42,958 nucleotides of DNA. It comes from Synergistales bacterium. Its GTDB lineage: Bacteria; Synergistota; Synergistia; Synergistales; JAFGMB01. The notes under the pieces were generated by a model. It was not told the DNA's origin. It made no database searches and saw nothing but the letters and a program-made list of their open reading frames with translations. Location of the stretch: positions 1 to 42,958 of the forward strand of contig JAFGMB010000236.1 in the NCBI GenBank assembly GCA_016927765.1, read 5' to 3'. A program made the position numbers and the translations under genes. Positions 7,534-42,958 of the stretch are shown here, piece after piece; position 1 is the first letter of the stretch, and each line of letters starts with the position of its first letter.

Positions 7534-7675
7534 CTTTTTCCTGGACATTTCCAGATACAATCTGCAGTTCTTTCCCGGGAAAAAAGTTCGCCTTTTTGTT
7601 ATCCTATACAGACACGAGGTGTTGTTTAAGGGAAGATCTTCGATCTTCAATCTTGATATGACAGGAGGATTACAA

Positions 7676-8920
7676 ATGAAAAACGTTTTTGAGGAATACA
7701 GGGACGTATGGAGCCGAAGATCGGAATTTCCATCCCTTGAGAGAACCCATAACGGCTTCCCTCTTGCCTATTTCGATGGGCCTGGAGGGACCCAGGTGCC
7801 TCAGTCGGTCATCGATGGGGTTAGCTGGTATTACAGGACCTGCAATTCCAACACCCATGGTTTCTTTATTACCACCAATGAATCTGACGCAATGATCGAA
7901 GAAACCCGTGATACAGTGGCAGCATTCCTTGGGGCCCCAGGAGGTAAAAATATTTCATTCGGTCACAACATGACCACCTTGAACTACAGCCTGAGCAGGG
8001 CTATCGGGAAATATCTTCAACCGGGGGATGAGATCCTGGTTACCCAGCTTGATCATGAAGCCAACAGGGGTCCCTGGCTTGCCCTCAGAGACCAGGGGAT
8101 CACTGTCAGGGAAATCGCCATAACTCCAGAGGCTACCCTGGATTACGATGACCTGGAGGAGAAACTCAATGAGAACACCCGTCTTGTAGCCGTGGGATTT
8201 TCCTCAAACGCTATCGGGACAGTGAACGATATCGAAAGGATCAGGGCCATGACCTACAAGGTGGGTGCCTGGCTCCTGGTTGATGCAGTCCATTACGCAC
8301 CCCACTTCCCTCTCGACGTTACCTCTCTGGGATTGGATTTTCTTCTCTGCTCGGCCTACAAGTTCTACGGCCCCCATATAGGGATCCTTTACTCAAAGGA
8401 AGGGCTTCTTGACCGCCTGCCGGTCTATACCCTCAGGACCCAGGAGCAACACGCTCCATACTCCATTGAAACGGGCACCCTGAATCATGCCGCAATTTCC
8501 GGTGTCAAGGCAGCGGTGGAATATGTGGCATCTTTCGCCATCGAAGGTTCTACCCTTCGTGAAAAAATAGTGTCCGGGATGGTTCGTATCAGTGCTTACG
8601 AACACCTTCTGGCAAGGGAGATCTATCAGAGGATATCTGAATTCGAAAGGCTGAAGATCGTGGGACCCTCCATTGATGTTTCCCGCAGATGTCCCACCAT
8701 ATCCTTCACCACAGAAGGCATGGATCCAATCCAGGTCTGCTCCATGCTCAACGAAAAAGGGATCTGTGCATGGGACGGTCATTTCTATGCCCTACGTCCC
8801 ATAGAAGTCCTGGGGTTGCTTGAAAAAGGGGGCGTCACCCGTCTTGGTGTATCTCTCTACAATACCGGGCAAGAAGTGGATCGGCTTATAGATGCCCTTT
8901 CTGAAATAGTAAAGGTATGA
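7676..8920 (+). CDS. class V aminotransferase / cysteine desulfurase-family PLP enzyme
   Basis: The HEANRGPW and DAVHYAPH contexts and a SAYKFYGPH lysine motif are typical of the SufS/CsdA-like fold. ATG 7676 has AGGAGG 7 nt upstream. Confidence 0.8.
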   Translation: MKNVFEEYRDVWSRRSEFPSLERTHNGFPLAYFDGPGGTQVPQSVIDGVSWYYRTCNSNTHGFFITTNESDAMIEETRDTVAAFLGAPGGKNISFGHNMTTLNYSLSRAIGKYLQPGDEILVTQLDHEANRGPWLALRDQGITVREIAITPEATLDYDDLEEKLNENTRLVAVGFSSNAIGTVNDIERIRAMTYKVGAWLLVDAVHYAPHFPLDVTSLGLDFLLCSAYKFYGPHIGILYSKEGLLDRLPVYTLRTQEQHAPYSIETGTLNHAAISGVKAAVEYVASFAIEGSTLREKIVSGMVRISAYEHLLAREIYQRISEFERLKIVGPSIDVSRRCPTISFTTEGMDPIQVCSMLNEKGICAWDGHFYALRPIEVLGLLEKGGVTRLGVSLYNTGQEVDRLIDALSEIVKV

Positions 8921-9975
8921 TCTCCATGGAGCCCTGCAGGAGAAAACTCAAGGTCCTCCTCATAGGTTTCGGTAACGTGGGAAGGCAATTGGCAAAAATA
9001 CTCACCAGGGAAAGAGACCACTTCCCCGGCCTTTCCCCTCTGGAACTCAAATTTGTGGCGATTATCGGAAGATCCAAAGGAAGCCTGGTGAACCAGGATA
9101 AAGGGATCGATCTTCATAAGGCCCTGGAGGAAGTAGAGAATCATGGTACCTTTGATCCTGCGAACCCCGACAGGACAGACATGACCGGCCTGGAGGCTGC
9201 TGCATCCCTTGATTACGATGTCCTCATCGAGCTTTCCACTCTTTCCATTGAGAACCGGGGAGAACCAGCTATAAGCCATATCAGGACAGCACTCGCAAGA
9301 GGTTCTCATGCCATTTCAGCCAACAAGGGCCCTGTGGCCTTCGCATTGAAGGACCTCCAGGATCTGGCACATATGAACAATTGTTCATTCCTTTACGAAA
9401 CCACGGTCATGGATGGAGCACCGGTCTTCAAAATGGCCAGATGCTCCCTGAAAGGATGCACCATTAAAGGGATAGACGGCATCCTCAACTCCACCACTAA
9501 TTACATCCTTACCAGGATGGAAGAGGGCCAGTCCCTTGAAGGAGCTGTAAAGGAAGCCCAGGATATAGGAGTGGCGGAAGCAGATCCCAGCCATGACCTC
9601 GAAGGCTGGGACCCTGCTGCCAAGATATCGGTCCTGGCCAATTCACTGATGGGAGCGTCCATAACACCCTACGAAGTTGACAGGACCGGAATTACCCATT
9701 TGAAAGTGGAAGATGTAAGACAGGCATCAATTTCCGGGAAAAAACTGAAGCTCCTCTGCCGAGCCTGGCGCGAGGCAGGGATGGTCAAGGCAAGCGTTAA
9801 GGTTGAGGAAATACCCGCCCTACATCATTATGCTTCGGTTACGGGGGGCGGGGCCGTGATAAGGATAGAAACGGATCTGATGGGGCCCATACTCATAACC
9901 CAGGAAGACCCCACCCTTTACGACACGGCTTATGGCGTACTGAGCGATCTTATGACATTGACCTGCGGATACTGA
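8917..9975 (+). CDS. homoserine dehydrogenase-family NAD(P)-binding protein (no ACT domain)
   Basis: An N-terminal Rossmann motif (LLIGFGNVGRQLAKIL) is present, with a central SANKGP and a C-terminal catalytic domain. The ATGA overlap with the upstream gene suggests translational coupling. Confidence 0.7.
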   Translation: MISMEPCRRKLKVLLIGFGNVGRQLAKILTRERDHFPGLSPLELKFVAIIGRSKGSLVNQDKGIDLHKALEEVENHGTFDPANPDRTDMTGLEAAASLDYDVLIELSTLSIENRGEPAISHIRTALARGSHAISANKGPVAFALKDLQDLAHMNNCSFLYETTVMDGAPVFKMARCSLKGCTIKGIDGILNSTTNYILTRMEEGQSLEGAVKEAQDIGVAEADPSHDLEGWDPAAKISVLANSLMGASITPYEVDRTGITHLKVEDVRQASISGKKLKLLCRAWREAGMVKASVKVEEIPALHHYASVTGGGAVIRIETDLMGPILITQEDPTLYDTAYGVLSDLMTLTCGY

Positions 9976-10123: not shown

Positions 10124-11026
10124 TTAATTCGATATCCTCTTTCTCCGATGGTGAAAGCAAACCGGCTTTTTCCCCCTGATCGAGAGGATCAGAAGACCTG
10201 TAAAGATCAGCATGATCCCTGCAAGTACAGGTCCGGTCACATCCTCCCCCAGAAGGAATATCCCAAGACATGAAGCGGTCAGGGGTTCTGAAAGGGTAAG
10301 GGTGTATGCCGTGGAAATCTTTATCATTGTTATTCCCAGGGCAAATAGTACATAGGGAAGGGCTGTTGCCATAAGGCTGAGATGGCTCACCACCAGGGCA
10401 CCTCCCTGAGAGAAAAACCAGGAAAGGTCCCGAAAGAGAAGGACCGGTGAAATGATCACGCTGCCCAGGAGCAGCATCATGGCTGCCTTTTCAATTGAGC
10501 TTCTGGAATCGGGGAGCATCTTCATTGAAGAACCAGCAATGGCCCATGAAAACCCTGCCCCAAGAGCAAGAAGCACCCCCGTAAATTCTATGCCTATCTC
10601 TCCGGAAGGCAATGCCAGAAGGGCACATCCTGTTACCGCAAGGATCGTAGCGAGGTACCATTTGCGATCGATCTGCTCATGAAACAACACTTTTCCCAGG
10701 ATGCCTGCAATTATGGGTGCACTTCCTATGGTTATCATGGTCCCCACGGCAACACCTGTCTTCAGAAGAGCAGCGAAGAAAAATACCTGGTAAAGTCCCA
10801 TCCCGGCAGCTGAACCCAGGGCAGCTTCCCAGGGCCATGGACCTCGAAGTATCCTGAGTCCATTTCCCGGAAGGTCCAGAACCAGAAGGAACAGACCCCC
10901 GAAGAGGATGCGTAAAAAACCCAGGGCCAGTGGATCAGTCCCGGGAGGGGCAAAGAACTGGGCCGTCCCGGTGGTACCCCAAAGAACAGCTGCGGTAATG
11001 ACATATAGATATCCTCTATTTATGAT
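10124..11026 (-). CDS. EamA/DMT-family transporter (10-TM exporter type), probable non-canonical ATC/ATA start
   Basis: The tracked ORF 10124..10801 continues in frame upstream as (I)INRGYLYVITAAVLWGTTGTAQFF..., a typical EamA TM1. There is no ATG, GTG or TTG in that frame. GGAGG at 11036..11032 lies 5 nt before ATC 11026. The resulting 300 aa matches the usual family size. Confidence 0.7.
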   Translation of the reverse strand: MINRGYLYVITAAVLWGTTGTAQFFAPPGTDPLALGFLRILFGGLFLLVLDLPGNGLRILRGPWPWEAALGSAAGMGLYQVFFFAALLKTGVAVGTMITIGSAPIIAGILGKVLFHEQIDRKWYLATILAVTGCALLALPSGEIGIEFTGVLLALGAGFSWAIAGSSMKMLPDSRSSIEKAAMMLLLGSVIISPVLLFRDLSWFFSQGGALVVSHLSLMATALPYVLFALGITMIKISTAYTLTLSEPLTASCLGIFLLGEDVTGPVLAGIMLIFTGLLILSIRGKKPVCFHHRRKRISN

Positions 11027-15232: not shown

Positions 15233-15261
15233 AAAAGATCAAGGGATGGAGTGTGGTTATC

Positions 15262-16554
15262 ATGAATGATAGCTTCAAATTGGGAAGAGATTTTGCAATG
15301 CTTATGGACAGGGAAGATGAACTTGCCGGATACAGGGAACGTTTCTATATCCCCGGGAACGATATCTACATGGATGGTAATTCCCTTGGTTTGGCTTCAA
15401 GGGATGCCGAGAAAAGCCTTTTAAGGGTCCTGGAGGAATGGAAAACCCTCGGTATAAAGGGTTGGCTTGATGCAGAAAATCCATGGTTCTTCATACCGGA
15501 GGACCTGGGGGCAAAAATGGCTGCCCTGGTGGGAGCAAAATCCGAAGAGGTTATCATGACGGGATCCACCACCAGCAATCTCCATTCCCTAGTATCAACC
15601 TTCTACAAACCCTGGGAAGGAAGAACAAGGATCATTGCCGATGAACTCAACTTCCCCTCCGATATATATGCAATCAAAAGCCAGATCATGAATCACAACC
15701 TTGATCCTGAAGACAACCTGATCCTTGTGAAAAGCAGGGACGGCAAATACATCTATGAAGAGGATATTATGGCTGCCATGGATGAATCCGTTTCAATTGC
15801 CCTGCTTCCAGGTGTCCTGTACAGGAGCGGCCAACTTCTGGACATGAAAAGACTCACTGAATATGCCCATAGCAAAGGGATCATTATCGGATTTGACTGC
15901 GCCCATTCTGCAGGATCGGTGCCACATAAACTGCACGACTGCGATGTGGACTTCGCCTTCTGGTGCAGCTACAAGCACCTAAATGGCGGTCCTGGAAGCC
16001 CCGCTTTCCTTTATCTGAACGAAAAGCATTTTGACCGGGAACCCGGTTTGGCCGGATGGTTTGGCTATATCAAGAACAGGCAGTTCGATCTTGCCCTTGA
16101 TTTTCAGCACTCAAGGACTGCCGGAGGTTGGCAGATGGGCACACCATGCATTTTTTCCACTGCAGCCCTGGAGGGAGCCCTGAAAATATTCAGAGAGGTG
16201 GGGATCGAAGCGGTCAGAAAAAAATCCCTTAAGCTCACTTCCTATGTTATTTTCCTTGTGGACAATCTCCTTTCAGAAAAACCCTATAACTACTCCATAG
16301 GGACCCCCCGCGAAGAGGAACGTCGGGGCGGACATGTAGCGGTGGAACACAAAGAAGAAGCATGGAGGATCTGCTGTGCCCTCAAGGCTCGGGGAATAAT
16401 CCCTGATTTCAGGCCGGATTCTGTGATCAGGATCGCCCCAGTGGCCCTGTACAACACCTTCACCGAAGTTTGGGATGTGATACAGGCGCTGAAAGAGATC
16501 ATAGACAACAGGGAATTTGAGGCTTTCAGCAAAACCAGGGATGCCGTTTCCTGA
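15262..16554 (+). CDS. kynU: kynureninase (L-kynurenine hydrolase; PLP)
   Basis: The motifs YMDGNSLGL, DFAFWCSYKHLNGGPGSPAFLY (the kynureninase PLP-lysine signature) and the roughly 430-aa length all fit. ATG 15262 is preferred over GTG 15253. Confidence 0.85.
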   Translation: MNDSFKLGRDFAMLMDREDELAGYRERFYIPGNDIYMDGNSLGLASRDAEKSLLRVLEEWKTLGIKGWLDAENPWFFIPEDLGAKMAALVGAKSEEVIMTGSTTSNLHSLVSTFYKPWEGRTRIIADELNFPSDIYAIKSQIMNHNLDPEDNLILVKSRDGKYIYEEDIMAAMDESVSIALLPGVLYRSGQLLDMKRLTEYAHSKGIIIGFDCAHSAGSVPHKLHDCDVDFAFWCSYKHLNGGPGSPAFLYLNEKHFDREPGLAGWFGYIKNRQFDLALDFQHSRTAGGWQMGTPCIFSTAALEGALKIFREVGIEAVRKKSLKLTSYVIFLVDNLLSEKPYNYSIGTPREEERRGGHVAVEHKEEAWRICCALKARGIIPDFRPDSVIRIAPVALYNTFTEVWDVIQALKEIIDNREFEAFSKTRDAVS

Positions 16555-18157: not shown

Positions 18158-18313
18158 TTTGACCTCCATACAAAGAATTTCATGTCAGGAATTAATGATA
18201 AAGGATATCATTCCATCAAGGAAGGGGGTTTTCTCATTTCATTGACACGAAAGAACACAAAGGATACATTGAATCTCATCATAAAGACTTCGGAGGTGCT
18301 GCCTGTGTACCAT

Positions 18314-19300
18314 ATGAGAGTACTGAACTGCCATGATCTCGGGAAAGTCCTCAGCATGCCTGAAGTGGTGGATTGCGTCGAAGATGCCTATCGTCTTTTT
18401 TCAGCCAGGGAAGCGGGACTGTGGCCGGTGATCTTCCATGAGTTCGAGCCAGGTGTAAGGGATATGGATATCAAATCAGGCTACCTGGAAGGGGCGGGGC
18501 TTTTCGGGCTCAAGATAGTTGGCTATTCTGCGGACAATCCTGTCAAACTTAATGCACCAGCCCTGTCCGGCCTAGTAATGGTGATGAGTATCGAGACAGG
18601 TCAGCCTTTGGGACTTGTAGACGGAATGACAGTGACCAACCTTCGTACGGGAGCAGCAGGAGCTATTGGGGCGAAATGGCTTGCACGAAAGAATTCCCGT
18701 AAGGTCCTGATCCTAGGTGCAGGTGCCCAGGGAAGGGCACAGTGTGAAGGTCTTATGGCAGTGATGCCTGACCTGGAATCTGTAACCTTTTCCAGCAGGC
18801 ACACTGAAACAGCAAGAGCCTGTGTAGAAGAATTGACTCCCAGGTATGGATCAGTAAAACTGGATCATGTAGACTGGGAAAACATTGCTGAACCAGCTTC
18901 GAATTCAGATATCATAGTGACCTGCACACCCGCCAGGAAAGGGTTCCTGCGAAAGGAGTGGATCCAGCCCGGCACTCACATCAACGCCATTGGAGCTGAC
19001 ATGACCCTTAAACAGGAAATTGACCCTCAGCTTGTAGCTGCAGCCAGCCTTTTTGTCGATTCCCAGGAACAGACCCTTCATCATGGTGAATGCCACCATG
19101 CTTATGAGCAGGGTCTTATCAGTGAAGAGGATGTGACCGAGATAGGGTCTGTCATCCTTGGCCAGGCTGACGGAAGAAATTCTTCGGAGGAGATAACAAT
19201 GTTTGATGCCACAGGTATGGCCCTTCAGGACATCATCACGGCCAATCTGGCGCTTAATCGTGCAGCAAAGAAGGGTCTCGGTTCGGTTGTGACCATGTGA
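18314..19300 (+). CDS. ornithine cyclodeaminase/mu-crystallin-family NAD(P) enzyme
   Basis: A Rossmann motif (VLILGAGAQGRAQ) and NAIGAD are present, with a family-typical length of 328 aa counted from ATG 18314. Confidence 0.8.
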   Translation: MRVLNCHDLGKVLSMPEVVDCVEDAYRLFSAREAGLWPVIFHEFEPGVRDMDIKSGYLEGAGLFGLKIVGYSADNPVKLNAPALSGLVMVMSIETGQPLGLVDGMTVTNLRTGAAGAIGAKWLARKNSRKVLILGAGAQGRAQCEGLMAVMPDLESVTFSSRHTETARACVEELTPRYGSVKLDHVDWENIAEPASNSDIIVTCTPARKGFLRKEWIQPGTHINAIGADMTLKQEIDPQLVAAASLFVDSQEQTLHHGECHHAYEQGLISEEDVTEIGSVILGQADGRNSSEEITMFDATGMALQDIITANLALNRAAKKGLGSVVTM

Positions 19301-19388
19301 TCCCTTTGATGTTGTGACCTTTGTCGGTGAAAAGAGCAGGTTTAGAGTTATTTGCATTACCTGCAACTCCAGGAGAGGATGAAGACTG

Positions 19389-20360
19389 ATGATAAAACCC
19401 ACCATTACGGATGTGCTTCTTGCAGCAAGGTTCCTCAAGGGAAGGATTCACAGGACTCCGACCGAATATTCGATCCCCTTCAGCAATAGAGTGGGAACAG
19501 CGGTTTATGTGAAATGGGAGAACCAGCAGATGTGCAGATCCTTCAAGATCAGGGGGGCTCTGAACAAGATGTTCTCCCTGACTGAAGAAGAAAGATCCAG
19601 GGGAGTGGTCACCGCATCTTCGGGAAACCATGCCCAGGGTGTTGCCACAGCAGCCCGGATGCTCAGAACAAAGGCGATCATATGTGTTCCGGGTATGTGT
19701 CCGGAGACAAAAAGAGATGCTATTCGAAACCTCGGAGGAGAATACGTGGACCTCAGGGTTATAGGGCATTTCTACAACGATGCAGAGGATGAATCCTTCC
19801 GACTCAGGGACGAAGAGGGGCTCACCTATGTTTCGGCCTTTGAGGATCTGAAGATAGCCGCAGGCCAGGGAACCCTTGCCCTTGAAATGCTCATGGACGA
19901 ACCGGAACTGGATATCATTTTCTGCCCCATCAGCGGAGGAGGACTTATTTCAGGTGTGATCACAGCAGCTCAGGCATTGAGACCCGGTATCCAGGTGTGG
20001 GGCGTACATGCATCTGCCAATCCGGCCTGGCCAGAAGCCTTCAGGCAGGACAGGGTGGTCCCGGTGGATGAAGATGAGACCATTGCTGATGCCCTCTGCG
20101 GAGGGGCTTCCCAGCCCTTGTTCGAATACCTCAAAGAGAGGCTTGCAGGGATCATTGCCGTATCTGAAGACGAACTGGAAGAGGCAATGGCTTTTACCCA
20201 TCACCATCATCACCAGGTGATAGAGGGGGGAGCTGCCACTTCATTAGCCGGTCTATTTTCAGGAAAAGTGAACGTTACGGGCATGAAAGTAGGACTTGTC
20301 ATCTCAGGTGGAAACGTGGACGACGGAAAGCTTGTGGAGATCCTTCATAAATATAGCTGA
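19389..20360 (+). CDS. threonine/serine dehydratase-family PLP enzyme (fold type II)
   Basis: The PLP-lysine motif SFKIRGA, SSGNHAQGVA and a glycine loop (PISGGGLISG) are present. There is no C-terminal ACT regulatory domain. Confidence 0.8.
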   Translation: MIKPTITDVLLAARFLKGRIHRTPTEYSIPFSNRVGTAVYVKWENQQMCRSFKIRGALNKMFSLTEEERSRGVVTASSGNHAQGVATAARMLRTKAIICVPGMCPETKRDAIRNLGGEYVDLRVIGHFYNDAEDESFRLRDEEGLTYVSAFEDLKIAAGQGTLALEMLMDEPELDIIFCPISGGGLISGVITAAQALRPGIQVWGVHASANPAWPEAFRQDRVVPVDEDETIADALCGGASQPLFEYLKERLAGIIAVSEDELEEAMAFTHHHHHQVIEGGAATSLAGLFSGKVNVTGMKVGLVISGGNVDDGKLVEILHKYS

Positions 20361-30414: not shown

Positions 30415-30462
30415 ATGATAAGAGCACTTACAACCAGGAATTGGTGGTGGCAGACCTTCTAA
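30415..30462 (+). CDS. trpL: trp operon leader peptide MIRALTTRNWWWQTF (three tandem Trp codons)
   Basis: AGGAG lies 9 nt upstream of ATG 30415. TGG TGG TGG occupies 30442..30450. The stop is followed by alternative hairpins and a terminator. Confidence 0.8.
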   Translation: MIRALTTRNWWWQTF

Positions 30463-30568
30463 GTCTGCCGCCATGAGCCTTAACGATCGTTAGTTTATAA
30501 ATTCAAGAGGCCTTGGAGGCGGATCCTATAAGGGATTCTCTTTCAAGGCCTTTCGTGTACCTGCACCC

Positions 30569-30607
30569 AGGGAGGGGCCTTATTAAGGACCCTCCCTATT
30601 TTTTTAT
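30569..30607 (+). terminator. trp attenuator terminator
   Basis: AGGGAGGGGCC-TTATTAA-GGACCCTCCCT, then ATTTTTTTAT, located 38 nt before the trpE start. Confidence 0.8.
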
Positions 30608-30644
30608 CCCTCCGGGAAGGACCTGGAGATCAAGGAGGTATTCC

Positions 30645-32186
30645 ATGCCTTACCGAATGAACACATTTACGGGCCACAGAATTACGAGTCGGGACACTTT
30701 CAAAGATCTTGCTGAAAGATATGACCTGGTACCCCTGGTACTGGAGATGGGAACAGGAGAGGAAACACCCCTTTCCGTGTACATGAAACTCGATGCAGGC
30801 ACAGGCTATTCCTTCCTGCTTGAGAGTGGTGACCGGGGAGGAACGGGAGGACGCTATTCCTTTGTCGGAGGAGATCCTGAAAGTATCTTTCTTGTGACCA
30901 CTGAAGGGTGTAAGGTTCTGGGCGCGGAAGGGACTCACACTGGTTTTTATCCTTCCCCCGGAGGGGTACGAAAGGCCATAACCGACTACCTTTCCTGTAA
31001 AAGGCCACCGAGAATAGATAACCTCCCCCCTTTTGCAGGAGGAATAGTAGGCTACTTCGGTTACGGCATGGTCGAGGAATGGGAGCAGTTGTTCCACGGG
31101 TCAGGCAGGAAGCTGAGACCTTCGGATCAGAACAATGCCGTGCTGATGGGCTTTGTGACCATGGCTGCCTTCGATCATGAGACAGAAAACCTTTTCCTTA
31201 TCCATAACGTTCGAATTCCAGAACCCTCTTCCGGGAAGAGCCTTGACCTGCTCTATGATGAGGGGATCGGAATACTTGAGACACTGAAAGACCGGGTCAC
31301 TGAAGAGATCCCGGCAATACCTCCCCATGGGCCCTGTTTCCTTGGCCCTGTCAAGGCACACACATCCAAAGGGGATTTCCTCGAAATGACGCGAAAAGGA
31401 CTGGATCATATAATCGCAGGCGATATCTGCCAGGTGGTACTATCCCAGCGTTTTTCCACCGAGACGGATCTCCCCTCGTTAGAGATCTACAGGACCCTTA
31501 AGGAGATCAATCCCTCTCCATACCTGTTCTTCCTGGGTCTACCGGGTCTTGAGATCATCGGCTCCTCTCCTGAGGTCCTGGTGAAGGTGGAGGGACAGAA
31601 GGTCATTACCCGTCCCCTGGCGGGAACCCGCCCTCGAGGAGCTTCCCCTGAAGAGGACAGGCTTCTCGCCGAAGAGCTGCTGGCAGATGAGAAGGAACGG
31701 GCGGAACATCTCATGCTCGTGGACCTCGCACGGAATGACCTTGGGAGGGTCTGCAGTACAGGGACTATCAAAGTAACCGAATTGATGGGATTGGAATTCT
31801 ATTCCCGGGTGATGCACATCGTTTCCCAGGTAGAGGGAGAAAGACGGGAAGATATGAGCGCCCTGGAAGTGCTTGAGTCTGCATTTCCGGCAGGTACAGT
31901 TTCCGGAGCCCCCAAGATCAGGGCCATGGAGATCATCGAGGACCTCGAGAGCCTGCCACGGGGTCCTTACGCAGGGGCAGTAGGCTACATAGGATTCGAT
32001 GGAGACCTGGATTCATGTATCGTCATCCGGACCATGATCCGTGAGGACAATACCATAAGCGTCCAGGCAGGGGCGGGGATCGTCTACGATTCGGTCCCCG
32101 AAAGGGAATATGAGGAAACCCGCAGCAAGGCCAGTGCCCTTTTGAAAGCACTGGAACAGACACTGGAAAGGAGGAACATCAAATGA
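30645..32186 (+). CDS. trpE: anthranilate synthase component I
   Basis: AAGGAGG lies 6 nt upstream of ATG 30645. Family-typical C-terminal chorismate-binding motifs are present (GTRPRG, FPAGTVSGAPK, RGPYAGAVGY). Confidence 0.9.
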   Translation: MPYRMNTFTGHRITSRDTFKDLAERYDLVPLVLEMGTGEETPLSVYMKLDAGTGYSFLLESGDRGGTGGRYSFVGGDPESIFLVTTEGCKVLGAEGTHTGFYPSPGGVRKAITDYLSCKRPPRIDNLPPFAGGIVGYFGYGMVEEWEQLFHGSGRKLRPSDQNNAVLMGFVTMAAFDHETENLFLIHNVRIPEPSSGKSLDLLYDEGIGILETLKDRVTEEIPAIPPHGPCFLGPVKAHTSKGDFLEMTRKGLDHIIAGDICQVVLSQRFSTETDLPSLEIYRTLKEINPSPYLFFLGLPGLEIIGSSPEVLVKVEGQKVITRPLAGTRPRGASPEEDRLLAEELLADEKERAEHLMLVDLARNDLGRVCSTGTIKVTELMGLEFYSRVMHIVSQVEGERREDMSALEVLESAFPAGTVSGAPKIRAMEIIEDLESLPRGPYAGAVGYIGFDGDLDSCIVIRTMIREDNTISVQAGAGIVYDSVPEREYEETRSKASALLKALEQTLERRNIK

Positions 32187-39969: not shown

Positions 39970-40584
39970 ATGAATGGCTCTTCCAAAAATGTCTATATCC
40001 TTGTCTTCGATGGGATGGCAGATTGGGAACCAGCCCTTGCCTTATGCGAAATAAAGAAAAAAGACAAAATGGACGTGATCTCCGTGGGTTTTTCCCAGGA
40101 ACCGGTCACCACCATGGGGGGATTGAAGATCCTCCCCGATATGGCTCTGAACGATGCAGAGCCTGAGGATATGGCCCTTTTCATCCTGCCGGGAGGAGAA
40201 ATGTGGGAAAAGGAAGAACACCCCCTTCTTCAGACCCTTCTGAAGACCTTTAAAAACGCCGGGGTTCCAGTTGCGGCAATATGCGGGGCCGTATTATCCC
40301 TTGCCAGGGCCGGGATACTGAAAGATACCCTCCATACCTCTAATTACAGGGGATACATCGAGGGGATAGTACCGGACTATGCAGGAAAGAAACATTACGT
40401 GGACGACAGGCTCTCCGTTACCGACAATGGTGTTATCACCGCCAGCGGTGTGGGTTACGTGGAATTCGCCAGGGATATCATAGATCTTTTGAAGATCTAC
40501 TCTCCAGAGCTGACGGAGGATTGGTACCAGCTGTTCAAATACGGCAGGATCACGGAGGAATACCTGAAGCATATTAAAAAGTAG
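39970..40584 (+). CDS. DJ-1/PfpI-family (class I glutamine amidotransferase-like) protein
   Basis: A nucleophile-elbow-like AAICGAVLSLARAG is present. AAGGAGG lies upstream. Confidence 0.8.
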   Translation: MNGSSKNVYILVFDGMADWEPALALCEIKKKDKMDVISVGFSQEPVTTMGGLKILPDMALNDAEPEDMALFILPGGEMWEKEEHPLLQTLLKTFKNAGVPVAAICGAVLSLARAGILKDTLHTSNYRGYIEGIVPDYAGKKHYVDDRLSVTDNGVITASGVGYVEFARDIIDLLKIYSPELTEDWYQLFKYGRITEEYLKHIKK

Positions 40585-40902
40585 GGTACGCCCAGAGGAC
40601 TCCACCGCAGATTCCGTCAAAAACCATCAGAATAAACCATAGAGACAGGTTGGCCGGACCCTCAGCATCCTAATACAACATAGAGCTGGATTAAGGCGGA
40701 CTTTCAGTACAGAGTAGAACCTTTTTCTATAGGTAGAATCTACACCTGAAAAGCGAACCACAGAGAAGGGCTTTTCATGTGTTTAATCAAAAATCCAAAA
40801 TCGGCGATCTAAGATCGGTTCACCACGGAGGCCCACAGCCGGAACCTTTCCCCCGGGTAAAGTTCCAACCATGGACTGTTTGCCTCTATATGACCCACCA
40901 GG

Positions 40903-40930
40903 TTGTCATTTCCTTAGAAGTATATATAAT
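40903..40930 (+). promoter_or_regulatory. candidate sigma-70 promoter for the Cys-rich micro-ORF and cysteine-synthase-like gene
   Basis: TTGTCA at 40903..40908, a 16-nt spacer, TATAAT at 40925..40930. Confidence 0.45.
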
Positions 40931-40962
40931 TAACTTATCACTTTTTCAGAGGAGGTGTACTA

Positions 40963-41094
40963 ATGAGGGATATTACGAAAACAACCAGAAAAAGGAACTT
41001 CTCTTCCTGTTGTTGTCGAGAGATGACTATATCCTGTCGATGTATCGACATCGCCGTTGGGAAACCTTCTCGAAGGAAACCCCTTTCTTTCTGA
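40963..41094 (+). CDS. 43-aa Cys-rich micro-ORF MRDITKTTRKRNFSSCCCREMTISCRCIDIAVGKPSRRKPLSF (candidate leader peptide or small protein)
   Basis: This is below the ORF-track cutoff. AGAGGAGG lies 7 nt upstream of ATG 40963. TGT TGT TGT occupies 41008..41016, and two more Cys codons follow. Confidence 0.45.
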   Translation: MRDITKTTRKRNFSSCCCREMTISCRCIDIAVGKPSRRKPLSF

Positions 41095-41246
41095 CCCCAT
41101 CGGCGTAGGATCCCAAAAACATTTCAACTGCTTTTGAGGAAAAGCCCTGCTTTATGACGGGGCTTGAAAATGGTGCTATTCAAAGACCGGCTGCTGAATA
41201 ACAGCATCCCTCTGATGCCTGTTATGGAAAGAAAGGAGAAATTATC

Positions 41247-42650
41247 ATGTCTCGTAATGAGATGGTCTGGGGACCAACTTATGAAGAAATGCTCCACCCC
41301 GAAAAAATAGATCCTGCCCTTCGCGAAAGGGCAATAGAGAAAAAGAACTGCCTTGATCCCGAGGCCCTTTTCAACATCACATGGAAAGACCTCCACCATA
41401 TCCCCTATTTCATGGTCATTCCCCCGAGGATCACTGGATTAGATGCTAATATCATTGTTCTCCTCGGGAAACACTTCCCCACCGGTTCCCACAAGGTGGG
41501 CTCCACCTATTCGGTCACCATGGAAAAACAGCTTGAGGGGTCCATAGATCCTTCAAGGGACACCCTGGTCTACCCATCCACCGGCAATTTCGGCATCGGC
41601 GGCGCATGGGTGGCTGGAAGAATGGGTTATGATTCCCTGGTGATACTTCCCTCATCAGTAAGCAGAGAACGCTTCGACCGGATCACCAGTTATGGGGGCA
41701 ACTACCTTAAGGCACCAGGTCTCGCAGGAATGTTCGAAGAGGCGAAAAAAATTGCTTCCCTTCCTGGAATGACGGTGATGAACCAGTTCATTTCCATGGC
41801 CAACTACAGGTTTCACTATGCCGTTACAGGCAATACCATCGTGGAACTCATGGAATACCTCAAATCCCTGGGTATCGGGAATGGCCGCTGTGAGGCTTTT
41901 ATCTCGGCCGTGGGTTCCGGGGGGACCATAGCTGCGGGAGACAGGATCAAAGAAATCTTTCCCGAAAGCCGGATCGTAGCCCTGGAGCCCTTCCAATGCC
42001 CTACCCTTTTCAGCAATGGGAAAGGAGAACATGATATCCAGGGTATCGGGGACGGCATCGTTACCTGGATCCATAACGTGCTCAACACGGATGCCGTAAT
42101 ATGCATGGATGACATGGACTGCAAAAGGGGACTAAGGCTGTTTACCGACCCTGCAGGTAAAAGATACCTGGTCCGGGAAGAAAATATCTCCACTGAAGAA
42201 GTCGAAAAAATGGCTCTTAACTTCGGCATCTCGGGTGTCTGCAACCTTTTAGGAGCCATAAGGGCTGCAAAACATTACAACCTGGCCAGGGGAACCAACA
42301 TGGTGACCATATGCACCGATTCCATCGACCGATACCATTCGGTCATGAAAGAGATGGAACAGAAAGACGGTAAGTTGACCCAGAGTAAAGCGGCAGAGAT
42401 CTTTGAAAGTATCTTCCGGAATCAGGAAGCCCATCTTATCCAGGAAGGAGATAAATCGAACCGCTACAGATGGTTTGAAATGAAACGCTCCTACTGGGTT
42501 AAGGAATGCGGAATGGATGAAGTCGAGCTTGAAGCCCAGAAAGACCCGGGCTGGTGGGAAAAAGAAAGGTCAAAATGTGCAGAGGTGGATCAACAGATCC
42601 TGGGAATGCGTAGAGAAATTGAAAATTCCTTACTGCCCAGGACTTCGTGA
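41247..42650 (+). CDS. long-form cysteine synthase (CysK/CysM)-family fold-type II PLP enzyme with N- and C-terminal extensions
   Basis: The PLP-lysine context is FPTGSHKVGS. The motifs STGNFGIGGA, AVGSGGTIAAG, HDIQGIGDG and GISGVCNLLGA mirror CysK signature blocks. At 467 aa it is far longer than the roughly 300 aa of CysK. AAAGGAG lies 8 nt upstream. Confidence 0.75.
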   Translation: MSRNEMVWGPTYEEMLHPEKIDPALRERAIEKKNCLDPEALFNITWKDLHHIPYFMVIPPRITGLDANIIVLLGKHFPTGSHKVGSTYSVTMEKQLEGSIDPSRDTLVYPSTGNFGIGGAWVAGRMGYDSLVILPSSVSRERFDRITSYGGNYLKAPGLAGMFEEAKKIASLPGMTVMNQFISMANYRFHYAVTGNTIVELMEYLKSLGIGNGRCEAFISAVGSGGTIAAGDRIKEIFPESRIVALEPFQCPTLFSNGKGEHDIQGIGDGIVTWIHNVLNTDAVICMDDMDCKRGLRLFTDPAGKRYLVREENISTEEVEKMALNFGISGVCNLLGAIRAAKHYNLARGTNMVTICTDSIDRYHSVMKEMEQKDGKLTQSKAAEIFESIFRNQEAHLIQEGDKSNRYRWFEMKRSYWVKECGMDEVELEAQKDPGWWEKERSKCAEVDQQILGMRREIENSLLPRTS

Positions 42651-42703
42651 TTTACAGGGCATCTTTCCAACCGGGGGCCGGATCTTTCCGGTCCCCGGGT
42701 TCA

Positions 42704-42958
42704 TCAGGCCTGTTCAGGCAGATCGACCTGGGATGCTTTTCTTCTTTCCTGTCTTTTTCTGAAATAGATCTCAGACTCGGTAACCATTACACCGAAGAAT
42801 ATGATCATGCCTCCCAGAAAAACCTGCCAGTTAAGCATCTCCTCCCCGATGAAAATAGCTATGGCATATCCCCAGAGACACTCCGTTGACTGGAGAATGG
42901 CTGCATGGGTGTCCGGGGAATATCTCTGGGCCATGGGCTGGATGAGAAAAGGCATTAC
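42704..42958 (-). CDS. EamA/DMT-family transporter, C-terminal part only; the gene runs off the right edge
   Basis: The C-terminal TM helices (LWGYAIAIFIGEEMLNWQVFLGGMIIFFGVMV) are followed by a basic tail. The reading frame is open to the window end. Confidence 0.6.
   Translation of the reverse strand, partial: VMPFLIQPMAQRYSPDTHAAILQSTECLWGYAIAIFIGEEMLNWQVFLGGMIIFFGVMVTESEIYFRKRQERRKASQVDLPEQA

Follow-up and report, generated by a model that had tools for sequence, protein, structure and literature searches.

What does a short open reading frame (ORF) with three consecutive cysteine codons do upstream of a cysteine synthase-like gene in a member of the Synergistota? The question is raised by a 42,958-nucleotide stretch of DNA from a Synergistales bacterium (GenBank assembly GCA_016927765.1, contig JAFGMB010000236.1, positions 1 to 42,958 of the forward strand). 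We call this whole stretch the window, and positions are those of the window unless a locus number precedes them. An earlier note, made from the letters of the window alone, had proposed that the ORF at 40963..41094 encodes a cysteine-sensing leader peptide. Comparison and folding of the leaders of related enzyme genes lead us to conclude, with moderate confidence, that the element is a cis-acting leader read by the ribosome at its Cys codons, which would act on translation and induce a CysK-family enzyme upon cysteine starvation.

A Cys-codon leader ORF upstream of a CysK-like gene

The leader and the gene behind it comprise the following features (RBS, ribosome-binding site; SD, Shine-Dalgarno sequence; PLP, pyridoxal phosphate).

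40903..40930, + strand: promoter, with -35 box TTGTCA (40903-40908), 16-nt spacer and -10 box TATAAT (40925-40930); 11 of 12 positions match the consensus
40948..40957, + strand: SD1, the RBS of the leader ORF, AGAGGAGGTG, 7 nt 5' of the ATG at 40963
40963..41094, + strand: leader ORF of 43 codons, peptide MRDITKTTRKRNFSSCCCREMTISCRCIDIAVGKPSRRKPLSF, stop codon TGA at 41092-41094
41008..41016, + strand: Cys run TGT TGT TGT (codons 16 to 18), kept in 10 of 11 leaders and reduced to two codons in L079
41035-41037 and 41041-41043, + strand: further Cys codons (25 and 27), read from the sequence
41247..42650, + strand: gene of a 467-amino-acid PLP enzyme of fold type II, of the CysK/CBS superfamily and not a CysK equivalog

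The promoter, the strong RBS, the 43-codon ORF with its five Cys codons and the gap of 152 nt between the end of this ORF and the enzyme gene all lie where the earlier note had placed them. The TTGTCA/TATAAT pair is the sole promoter-like site on the + strand within 40400..42958, and from its position transcription is predicted to start at about 40937. The RBS reads AGAGGAGG at 40948-40955, and the extended match AGGAGGTG at 40950-40957 is an SD of 8 nt. The ORF is unlikely to have arisen by chance, because Cys accounts for 1.2% of the codons in the 33 long ORFs of the window, which gives a probability of 1.7e-4 for at least 5 Cys in 43 codons, and because only one of the 476 small ORFs (sORFs) of 20 to 60 codons in the window contains three consecutive Cys codons, namely the leader ORF itself.

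The leader accompanies the enzyme gene

If the ORF has a regulatory role, is it kept in front of orthologous genes? We fetched the DNA around the nearest relatives of the enzyme and also scanned for the protein in one genome per species. This yielded 11 distinct leaders (the window, L001, L002, L003, L047, L005, L006, L008, L079, L009 and L080), which fall into two clades: clade I with nine leaders, including that of the window, and the divergent pair L009 and L080. The sole named organism among them is Acetomicrobium hydrogeniformans (Synergistota), represented by the metagenome-assembled genome of L047, with an enzyme of 80% identity. The ORF is present upstream of every enzyme relative at 62 to 91% identity, all of them from Acetomicrobium-like Synergistota. 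A lack of any conserved Cys-run ORF in orthologous leaders had been named in the earlier note as grounds for abandoning its proposal; all 11 leaders keep the ORF.

The strong SD, the ATG, the length and the position of the stop are the same across the 11 leaders, with no frameshifts; a single in-frame codon deletion in L079 shortens the Cys run from three codons to two, and the stop codon alternates between TGA and TAA. Within SD1, GAGGAGGTG is invariant, as is the -10 box TATATAAT, and the TTG of the -35 box is kept at identical spacing. Nucleotide conservation between relatives begins at the -35 box, and the flanking genes vary from locus to locus (DJ-1/PfpI, a B3_4 protein, an M20 peptidase or an amidohydrolase). 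We therefore take promoter, leader and enzyme gene to be one mobile unit.

Conservation ends with more distant enzymes. L081 and L082, with enzymes of 58 to 59% identity, have no leader ORF, and a Cys-run ORF is likewise missing upstream of the 31 genome-scan orthologues, whose identity is 57% or less. At 34 orthologue loci, Rfam detected neither a T-box nor an S-box, nor any other element, in front of the enzyme gene. A degenerate DNA pattern for the CCC...SCRCI core of the peptide, run against a metagenome collection, returned 37 stretches, of which L018 and L035 are real, both with the L002-type peptide; the other approximately 35 are chance matches, and no new leader variants were gained. 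The leader peptide is never predicted by any gene caller, and the 43-amino-acid sequence found no homologue among 5.8 billion predicted proteins. A 43-amino-acid ORF that has been called downstream in L006 is unrelated to the leader. Gene calls at these loci also misplace the enzyme start: the public 499-amino-acid call at L079 587-2086 (P0007) begins in the leader spacer, 96 nt 5' of the conserved ATG at 683, and the 462-amino-acid call of L002 (3001) begins 15 nt 3' of the ATG that aligns with all others.

The substitutions between leaders look like those of a coding sequence. In pairwise comparison of the 11 leaders, the synonymous fraction of single-base codon differences is 0.53 in frame versus 0.19 and 0.21 off frame, variable columns are distributed 18/18/28 over the three codon positions, and in almost all pairs conservation is lowest at the third position. 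Third positions are nevertheless more conserved than those of the enzyme gene; invariant runs disregard codon position, and conservation extends past the stop through CCCATCGGCGTA. From this pattern the leader ORF appears to be both translated and constrained as RNA. The earlier note had asked whether the Cys-run ORF is kept while its other codons drift. The first half of this expectation was borne out in all 11 leaders, and the second only in part, as the RBS-masking helices described below hold much of its nucleotide sequence constant. A translated Cys-run ORF as the cis leader of a CysK-family gene thus passes the comparative test, by its conservation and its codon-like substitutions, and has what defines amino-acid leader peptides with tandem codons: a conserved coding ORF on the same strand as a downstream gene, here of the CysK/CBS superfamily.

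A conserved fold is predicted to mask both ribosome-binding sites

RNAalifold returned the same consensus structure from all 11 leaders and from the nine clade-I leaders alone. In this closed fold 94.3% of the alignment cells are paired and 11 pairs show changes on both sides, a result reached by none of 500 shuffles, with 45 to 58% in slid controls. The minimum free energy (MFE) structure of the window is the same closed fold (-96 kcal/mol, z = -3.4). Its elements, all within the leader transcript, are as follows.

40960..40973, + strand: segment A, CTAATG (40960-40965) and GGGATAT (40967-40973), the 5' strands of the leader-masking domain
41038..41053, + strand: hairpin P2, CGATGT-ATCG-ACATCG, which holds Cys codon 27; 98.5% paired, all changes G-U compatible
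41052..41062, + strand: segment B, CGCCGTTGGGA, partner of A in the closed fold or of C in the alternative fold
41065..41071, + strand: anti-SD1, CCTTCTC (codons 35 to 37); 94.8% paired, duplex of -9 to -14 kcal/mol
41082..41093, + strand: anti-SD2, CCTTTCTTTCTG, spanning the last base of codon 40, codons 41 to 43 and the first two bases of the stop codon
41095..41107, + strand: segment C, CCCCATCGGCGTA, just 3' of the stop, partner of D in the closed fold or of B in the alternative fold
41142..41165, + strand: hairpin P3 of the spacer, AAGCCCTGC-TTTAT-GACGGGGCTT, with one pair changed from U-A to C-G in four sequences
41189..41209, + strand: hairpin P4, GGCTGCTG-AATAA-CAGCATCC, with three pairs changed on both sides
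41215..41221, + strand: segment D, ATGCCTG, which pairs with C
41225..41239, + strand: SD2 region of the enzyme gene, TGGAAAGAAAGGAGA, with the GGAG core at 41235-41238, 8 nt 5' of the ATG at 41247

Domain 1 masks initiation at the leader ORF. SD1 (40949-40955) pairs with CCTTCTC at 41065-41071, and its predicted unpaired probability in clade I is 0.00 to 0.15. CTAATG of segment A pairs with CGTTGG at 41055-41060 and GGGATAT with ATATCCT at 41029-41035, both 95 to 99% paired across the 11 leaders. Inside these helices lie the Cys run, hairpin P2 and a small hairpin at 41012-41027. The only synonymous change in the Cys run, a TGC codon in L009, is accompanied by a compensating change in the small hairpin (A2 pair 79:92).

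Domain 2 masks the RBS of the enzyme gene. Anti-SD2 forms 12 bp with TGGAAAGAAAGG at 41225-41236, reaching into the GGAG core (-15.7 kcal/mol), an energy matched by 6 of 1,000 shuffles. As in translationally coupled genes, the downstream SD is paired with the 3' end of the upstream ORF, here over 12 bp and in all nine clade-I leaders, with G-U compatible changes only. Other partners of anti-SD2, namely the purine tract at 40987-40997 and SD1, were set aside as weaker (-6.5 to -12.6 versus approximately -15.7 kcal/mol). Pairing of C with D (41098-41106 with 41215-41221) extends the SD2-masking helix; it is 92% paired, with two double-change pairs. Domain 2 encloses hairpins P3 and P4, with compensatory changes in both, and in L005, L006, L008 and L079 the rest of SD2 and the ATG also lie inside a local hairpin.

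The alternative duplex between B and C amounts to -13.7 to -18.7 kcal/mol in all 11 leaders. Across the alignment 86.8% of its cells are paired, and in L009/L080 two of its pairs have changed on both sides. In 9 of 11 leaders it is the helix of the MFE fold when the partial transcript downstream of a stalled ribosome is folded. Two other pairings put forward in the earlier note fared less well. The hairpin at 41197..41225 can form in the window, reusing D with the 3' arm of P4, but across relatives it is only 70.8% paired, no better than shuffles, and the competing P4 and C:D helices are better conserved. The proposed alternative pairing of AACAG with CTGTT in the Cys run comprises only 5 bp, and the leader alignment shows no conservation of AACAG.

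Starvation or sufficiency: the direction of the switch

How would such a leader be read? In our model, the strong, constitutive-looking promoter would produce an mRNA whose first 310 nt carry the translated 43-codon Cys-run ORF. Pyrimidine tracts inside this ORF would mask both RBSs, and the position of the ribosome would decide whether the enzyme is translated. During cysteine shortage, the pioneering ribosome would stall at codons 16 to 18 and block the re-pairing of A with B; the freed B would pair with C past the stop codon, which would take the C:D clamp off the SD2-masking helix and allow the enzyme to be made. With ample cysteine, the ribosome would finish and leave, and A:B, C:D and anti-SD2:SD2 would close and silence both cistrons. 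The A:B/B:C relay would also provide a rationale for the masked leader RBS, which would restrict reading to a pioneer round. We infer that the sensed quantity is charged tRNA-Cys, and likewise the sign of the response.

The divergent clade fits this model most directly. In L009 and L080 the enzyme SD CAGGAGGAAUAA pairs perfectly over 12 bp (-19.1 kcal/mol) with UUAUUCCUCCUG, which ends in the first Cys codon. When a ribosome was moved along these leaders in silico, the predicted opening of the SD2 core rose from 0.00-0.05 to 0.37-0.62 only with the A site at codons 9 to 20. A ribosome stalled on the Cys run would sit directly on this anti-SD2, and cysteine starvation would induce the enzyme.

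In the clade of the window the tract next to the Cys codons pairs weakly with SD2 (-3.8 to -9.6 kcal/mol, -7.8 in the window), and the strong partner is the 3' end of the ORF. Removing the 5' part of the transcript, which mimics a stalled ribosome, narrows the gap between the closed and the B:C folds from 4-18 to 0-9.5 kcal/mol, and to 0.7 kcal/mol in the window. We consider the A:B/B:C relay plausible in this clade. The earlier note had suggested looking for mutually exclusive structures. A chain of alternative helices, A:B/B:C/C:D, is present and conserved; in the clade of the window a stall at the Cys run, however, leaves SD2 masked at equilibrium.

This and several other observations weigh against starvation-induced control. 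In equilibrium folding of clade-I leaders, SD2 stays closed at 37, 55 and 65 C with a ribosome placed on the Cys run, and in the ribosome-position scan SD2 opens only with the A site at codons 38 to 44 (from codon 37 in some cases). B:C and anti-SD2:SD2 would be compatible with each other as an H-type pseudoknot, so that B:C alone need not free SD2: anti-SD2 lies in the loop of the B:C hairpin and may still reach SD2. Although B:C is conserved and is the first to form in partial transcripts, we rejected it as a sufficient anti-sequestor on the ground that SD2 is not freed at equilibrium, and retain it as a kinetic element only. The covariation is limited, most helix columns being invariant and the 11 sequences belonging to only two clades. 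The Cys codons are dispersed (16 to 18, 25 and 27, and 37 in some leaders) and do not lie in one masked segment. The 467-amino-acid enzyme is not a bona fide CysK by the NCBIfam cutoffs, and Acetomicrobium degrades cysteine (PMC11921371, PMC6025917), so that a biosynthetic logic is not assured.

What, then, is the enzyme? The protein has a PALP domain (E = 2e-22) and N- and C-terminal extensions. Its best NCBIfam matches are TIGR01139 cysK (116.6 bits, cutoff 350.95) and TIGR01136 cysKM (116.4 bits, cutoff 344.15), and the closest solved proteins are cysteine synthases (E ~1e-26). The earlier description as a CysK-like PLP enzyme is right as to the domain and the top-ranking models, but both scores are far below the equivalog cutoffs. 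Judged by these matches, the protein is a CysK-superfamily enzyme, its reaction unproven from sequence. It is one of a large family of anaerobe proteins with approximately 460 amino acids. Neither NCBIfam nor PDB nor gene context decided the direction of the switch.

The sign could be the opposite, and this is the alternative that survives best, possible though in our view unlikely. Complete translation of the leader with charged tRNA-Cys would then unmask SD2 and turn the enzyme on, and a stall at the Cys codons would keep both RBSs masked. The enzyme would in that case consume cysteine, perhaps as a CysK-like desulfhydrase, and be shut off when cysteine is scarce. The foldings of clade I favor this reversed logic: the sole strong partner of SD2 is the ORF 3' end, SD2 opens only for the late A-site codons, and stalls at the Cys run open it at no temperature tried. 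The spread of Cys codons along the ORF would suit it too, and with anti-SD1 located in the ORF, translation could sustain itself as a relay. In addition, Acetomicrobium isolates grow on L-cysteine by desulfuration through an uncharacterized pathway (PMC11921371, PMC6025917), distant orthologues of the enzyme stand in catabolic-looking contexts (a sigma-54 PrdR-like activator, a ThrC-like gene, YgeY), and the unmasking of a downstream RBS by an upstream ORF (uORF) has precedents (PMC8092293). Against it, the L009/L080 leaders are predicted to behave in the opposite manner, with a Cys-run stall opening SD2, and a sign reversal among orthologous units is unlikely. All characterized leader ORFs rich in one amino acid induce on starvation, as established knowledge and the precedents cited below agree. 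SD1 is strongly masked in the mature fold, so sustained leader translation is not obviously available, and the conserved B:C helix would have no role. Finally, tRNA charging saturates at low amino acid levels and is a poor sensor of excess substrate. We favor starvation-induced control because of the precedents, the geometry of L009/L080 and the improbability of opposite signs in homologous leaders.

Is the peptide itself the product?

The ORF could instead encode a functional microprotein, basic and rich in Cys, which might bind metal or sulfur or serve the PLP enzyme as partner or substrate. It would be coexpressed and translationally coupled with the enzyme and use its Cys residues for chemistry. 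We regard this as very unlikely. The coding signature and the intact ORF in all relatives would be expected of a microprotein, as would the five Cys residues with a net charge of approximately +8, the highly conserved second half SCRCIGI.VGKPS and the constant company of the enzyme gene despite differing flanking genes. The conserved stretches of the peptide, however, coincide with RNA helices, and the nucleotide conservation spans third positions and continues beyond the stop. Outside the helices (codons 4 to 15 and 19 to 22) 12 of 15 peptide positions vary, whereas Ser15, the Cys run and the codons that form helices stay fixed. One Cys of the run is dispensable (L079), the peptide has no Pfam or NCBIfam match in addition to its lack of homologues among the predicted proteins, and distant enzyme orthologues do without such a partner. 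This pattern of conservation fits a regulatory leader better than a functional microprotein.

Translation initiation or transcription termination

The earlier note had found no clean U-tract terminator and concluded that the mechanism would not be a classic attenuator. We agree: in the window no hairpin with a U tract was scored on the + strand between 41094 and 41247. Because there is no such terminator and no Rfam match, and because SD2 is masked, control probably operates at translation initiation by SD masking and not through an intrinsic terminator, as far as the folding models tell.

It is highly improbable, in our estimate, that P4 with a following CUUUUAU acts as an intrinsic or Rho-assisted terminator that depends on leader translation. 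P4 is indeed followed by CTTTTAT in L005 and L047, where it scored as terminator-like and shows covariation; the conserved stretch after the stop is C-rich and G-poor and would resemble a rut site; and the 3' arm of P4, GCGGCAAC, could base-pair with GUUGUCGC, which comprises the end of the Cys run and the codon after it (-13.4 kcal/mol in L005, 2715-3001; -12.6 kcal/mol in L047, 3717-4001; weakly in the window). However, the window has CTCTGAT (CUCUGAU) after P4, which was not scored, and L009 has no + strand terminator. P4 forms in the closed and B:C states alike, with no conserved antiterminator evident, and the complementarity between Cys run and P4 is weak or absent in most relatives; it may merely reflect the likeness of the UGU repeats to the 5' arm of P4. 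Moreover, the trp leader of the same organism has a terminator with a U7 tract. We rejected P4 as a regulated terminator, together with its pairing with the Cys run, as inconsistent across relatives.

That the leader is a ligand- or protein-binding structured RNA (a riboswitch or the site of an RNA-binding protein) with an incidental ORF is scarcely credible: very high nucleotide conservation, the multihelix fold (z = -3.4) and the masking of both RBSs, as in many expression platforms, would suit it, but the invariant 8-nt SD, the ATG, the fixed frame and stop and the codon-position bias point to translation, no credible Rfam match emerged even at E <= 10, and the P3-P4 spacer domain is not conserved between the two clades while the ORF is. 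Rfam covariance models at gathering thresholds gave no matches in the whole window, and at E <= 10 over 40550-41350 only chance-level matches (E >= 0.13). One of these, a weak match to the Caulobacter small RNA CC0196 on the minus strand (E = 0.13), was dismissed as chance. Read on the minus strand (41140-41186), hairpin P3 looks like a terminator, GCCCCGUCAUAAAGCAGGGC followed by UUUU; because no minus-strand gene ends there, we take the CC0196-like match to be a by-product of P3 and the A run 5' of it.

Relation to known cysteine leaders and significance

The closest functional relatives are the leaderless poly-Cys sORF attenuators of mycobacteria (Ms5788A and the Cys ribulon; Canestrari et al., bioRxiv 10.1101/834739), in which stalled ribosomes block a duplex that sequesters the downstream SD. 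The Synergistota leaders share with them consecutive Cys codons (three in 10 of 11 leaders, two in L079) upstream of a cysteine-related gene and, by prediction, an SD-sequestering duplex whose formation can be prevented by a ribosome on the sORF, without recourse to a terminator. L009 and L080 even share the mycobacterial geometry, with an anti-SD that ends in the first Cys codon. Unlike the leaderless mycobacterial sORFs, the present ORF is led by an SD in a predicted 5' untranslated region of 26 nt (32 nt separate the end of the -10 box from the ATG), and with 43 codons it is longer and has its Cys run in the middle instead of at the 3' end. In the clade of the window the anti-SD consists of the last ORF codons, approximately 70 nt past the Cys run, and the Cys tract is not the anti-SD in the window (-7.8 versus -15.7 kcal/mol for the ORF 3' end). 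The RBS of the leader is masked as well, the phylum is different and there is no sequence similarity.

Other systems share single traits. Like trpL, hisL and leuL, the leader has a run of cognate codons, a chain A:B/B:C/C:D that resembles 1:2/2:3/3:4, and an RBS that is masked after the first round; unlike them, it has no terminator in the window, it is read out by SD masking, and its Cys run lies in the A-B loop and not inside segment 1. The uORFC-8-2 motif of Rhodobacterales (PMC8632094) likewise places tandem Cys codons in a conserved uORF, in this case ahead of cysS, but it has an intrinsic terminator and serves a tRNA synthetase gene. Cys leader peptides predicted in the Actinobacteria P. 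acnes and B. longum (PMC1262725) are without obvious terminators, as here, but have their Cys runs near the stop codon. Both cases differ from the Synergistota leader in taxa and sequence. In ermC/cat and with the intergenic sORF of Salmonella mgtA (PMC8092293), the SD is also buried by part of an upstream ORF and the position of the ribosome decides; in the present leader the signal would be tRNA-Cys charging and not an antibiotic or Mg2+. The statement in the earlier note that no poly-Cys uORF attenuators are known outside mycobacteria was incomplete in view of the Rhodobacterales cysS case. The kind of element is already known; what is new is the sequence family, the phylum and the doubly masked, SD-led architecture.

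Why does such a leader matter? Cysteine-responsive leader ORFs have been demonstrated only in mycobacteria and predicted in a few other Actinobacteria and for cysS of Rhodobacterales, and the principle would now extend to Synergistota. The genome of A. hydrogeniformans encodes few transcription factors (43 genes), and the translational control of the phylum is almost uncharted (PMC6025917). The two RBS-masking helices and the two natural variants, with the anti-SD on the Cys run or at the ORF end, could show how such a switch is rewired in evolution, in an element that is clean, compact and experimentally tractable. The leader would link a widespread, uncharacterized family of CysK-like PLP enzymes of anaerobes to cysteine status, and the sign of control would mark this family as the cysteine synthase of the clade or as a candidate for its unassigned cysteine desulfuration. 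If the reversed logic were true, this would be the first amino acid leader ORF to gate a catabolic enzyme by sufficiency, a "permission switch" operated by tRNA charging, and it would point to the enzyme behind the unexplained metabolism of L-cysteine to sulfide in Acetomicrobium.

Gene neighborhoods of the enzyme family

The contexts of distant orthologues were viewed at L048, L050, L059 and L061-L072. A ThrC-like gene with an N-terminal zinc ribbon often adjoins the gene of the enzyme of approximately 460 amino acids (13 of 27 loci; Bacillota and Ignavibacteriales), which suggests a conserved, uncharacterized pathway with two PLP enzymes. At three loci the enzyme gene follows a sigma-54 PrdR-like activator in an apparent operon, and in Clostridium it lies near genes of a YgeY hydrolase, an ornithine-carbamoyltransferase-like and a glyoxylate-reductase-like protein.

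Transporter genes of the EamA family (drug/metabolite transporters, DMT) are found in the window on the minus strand at 42704-42955 and 10124-10801, and at L002 4442-5329. In both the window and L002, one EamA gene converges on the 3' end of the CysK-like gene. EamA of E. coli is an exporter of cysteine and O-acetylserine.

The trp leader and other genes of the window

The earlier note had also reported a leader with three Trp codons for the trp operon of the window, and this leader is present with a clean U7 terminator. The segment 30351-30660 is a complete classical trp attenuator with the promoter TTGACA-N17-TATAAT; for the comparison with the Cys leader we took 30416..30607. Its leader ORF (30416-30463) encodes MIRALTTRNWWWQTF, and the three UGG codons (30443-30451) are part of the 5' strand of the hairpin UGGUGGCAGAC/GUCUGCCGCCA. 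The intrinsic terminator, GGGAGGGGCC...GGACCCUCCC (GGGAGGG...CCCUCCC) with a U7 tract, occupies approximately 30571-30610 (fold z = -6.7). For the first trp gene, the mechanical ORF opens at TTG 30513, a position within the leader that still precedes the terminator; the real start of this gene is probably the ATG at 30646 (MPYRMNTF...), which follows AAGGAGG.

The other PALP gene of the window (19389-20360, 323 amino acids) is of the Ser/Thr dehydratase/EutB type and not a CysK, and the window is therefore without a canonical cysteine synthase. It follows an ornithine-cyclodeaminase/mu-crystallin family gene, the two forming an EutB/EutC-like pair at 18182-20360. At 7619-9975 a gene for a "cysteine desulfurase-like protein" (TIGR01976, above cutoff) overlaps the start of a homoserine dehydrogenase gene by 4 nt. 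In the segment 11653-16554, a kynureninase equivalog (15253-16554) is preceded by a MarR regulator and two paralogous PucR/CdaR-type regulators that combine a sugar-diacid recognition domain with HTH_30; the segment is possibly a tryptophan/kynurenine catabolic unit approximately 14 kb upstream of the trp biosynthesis operon.

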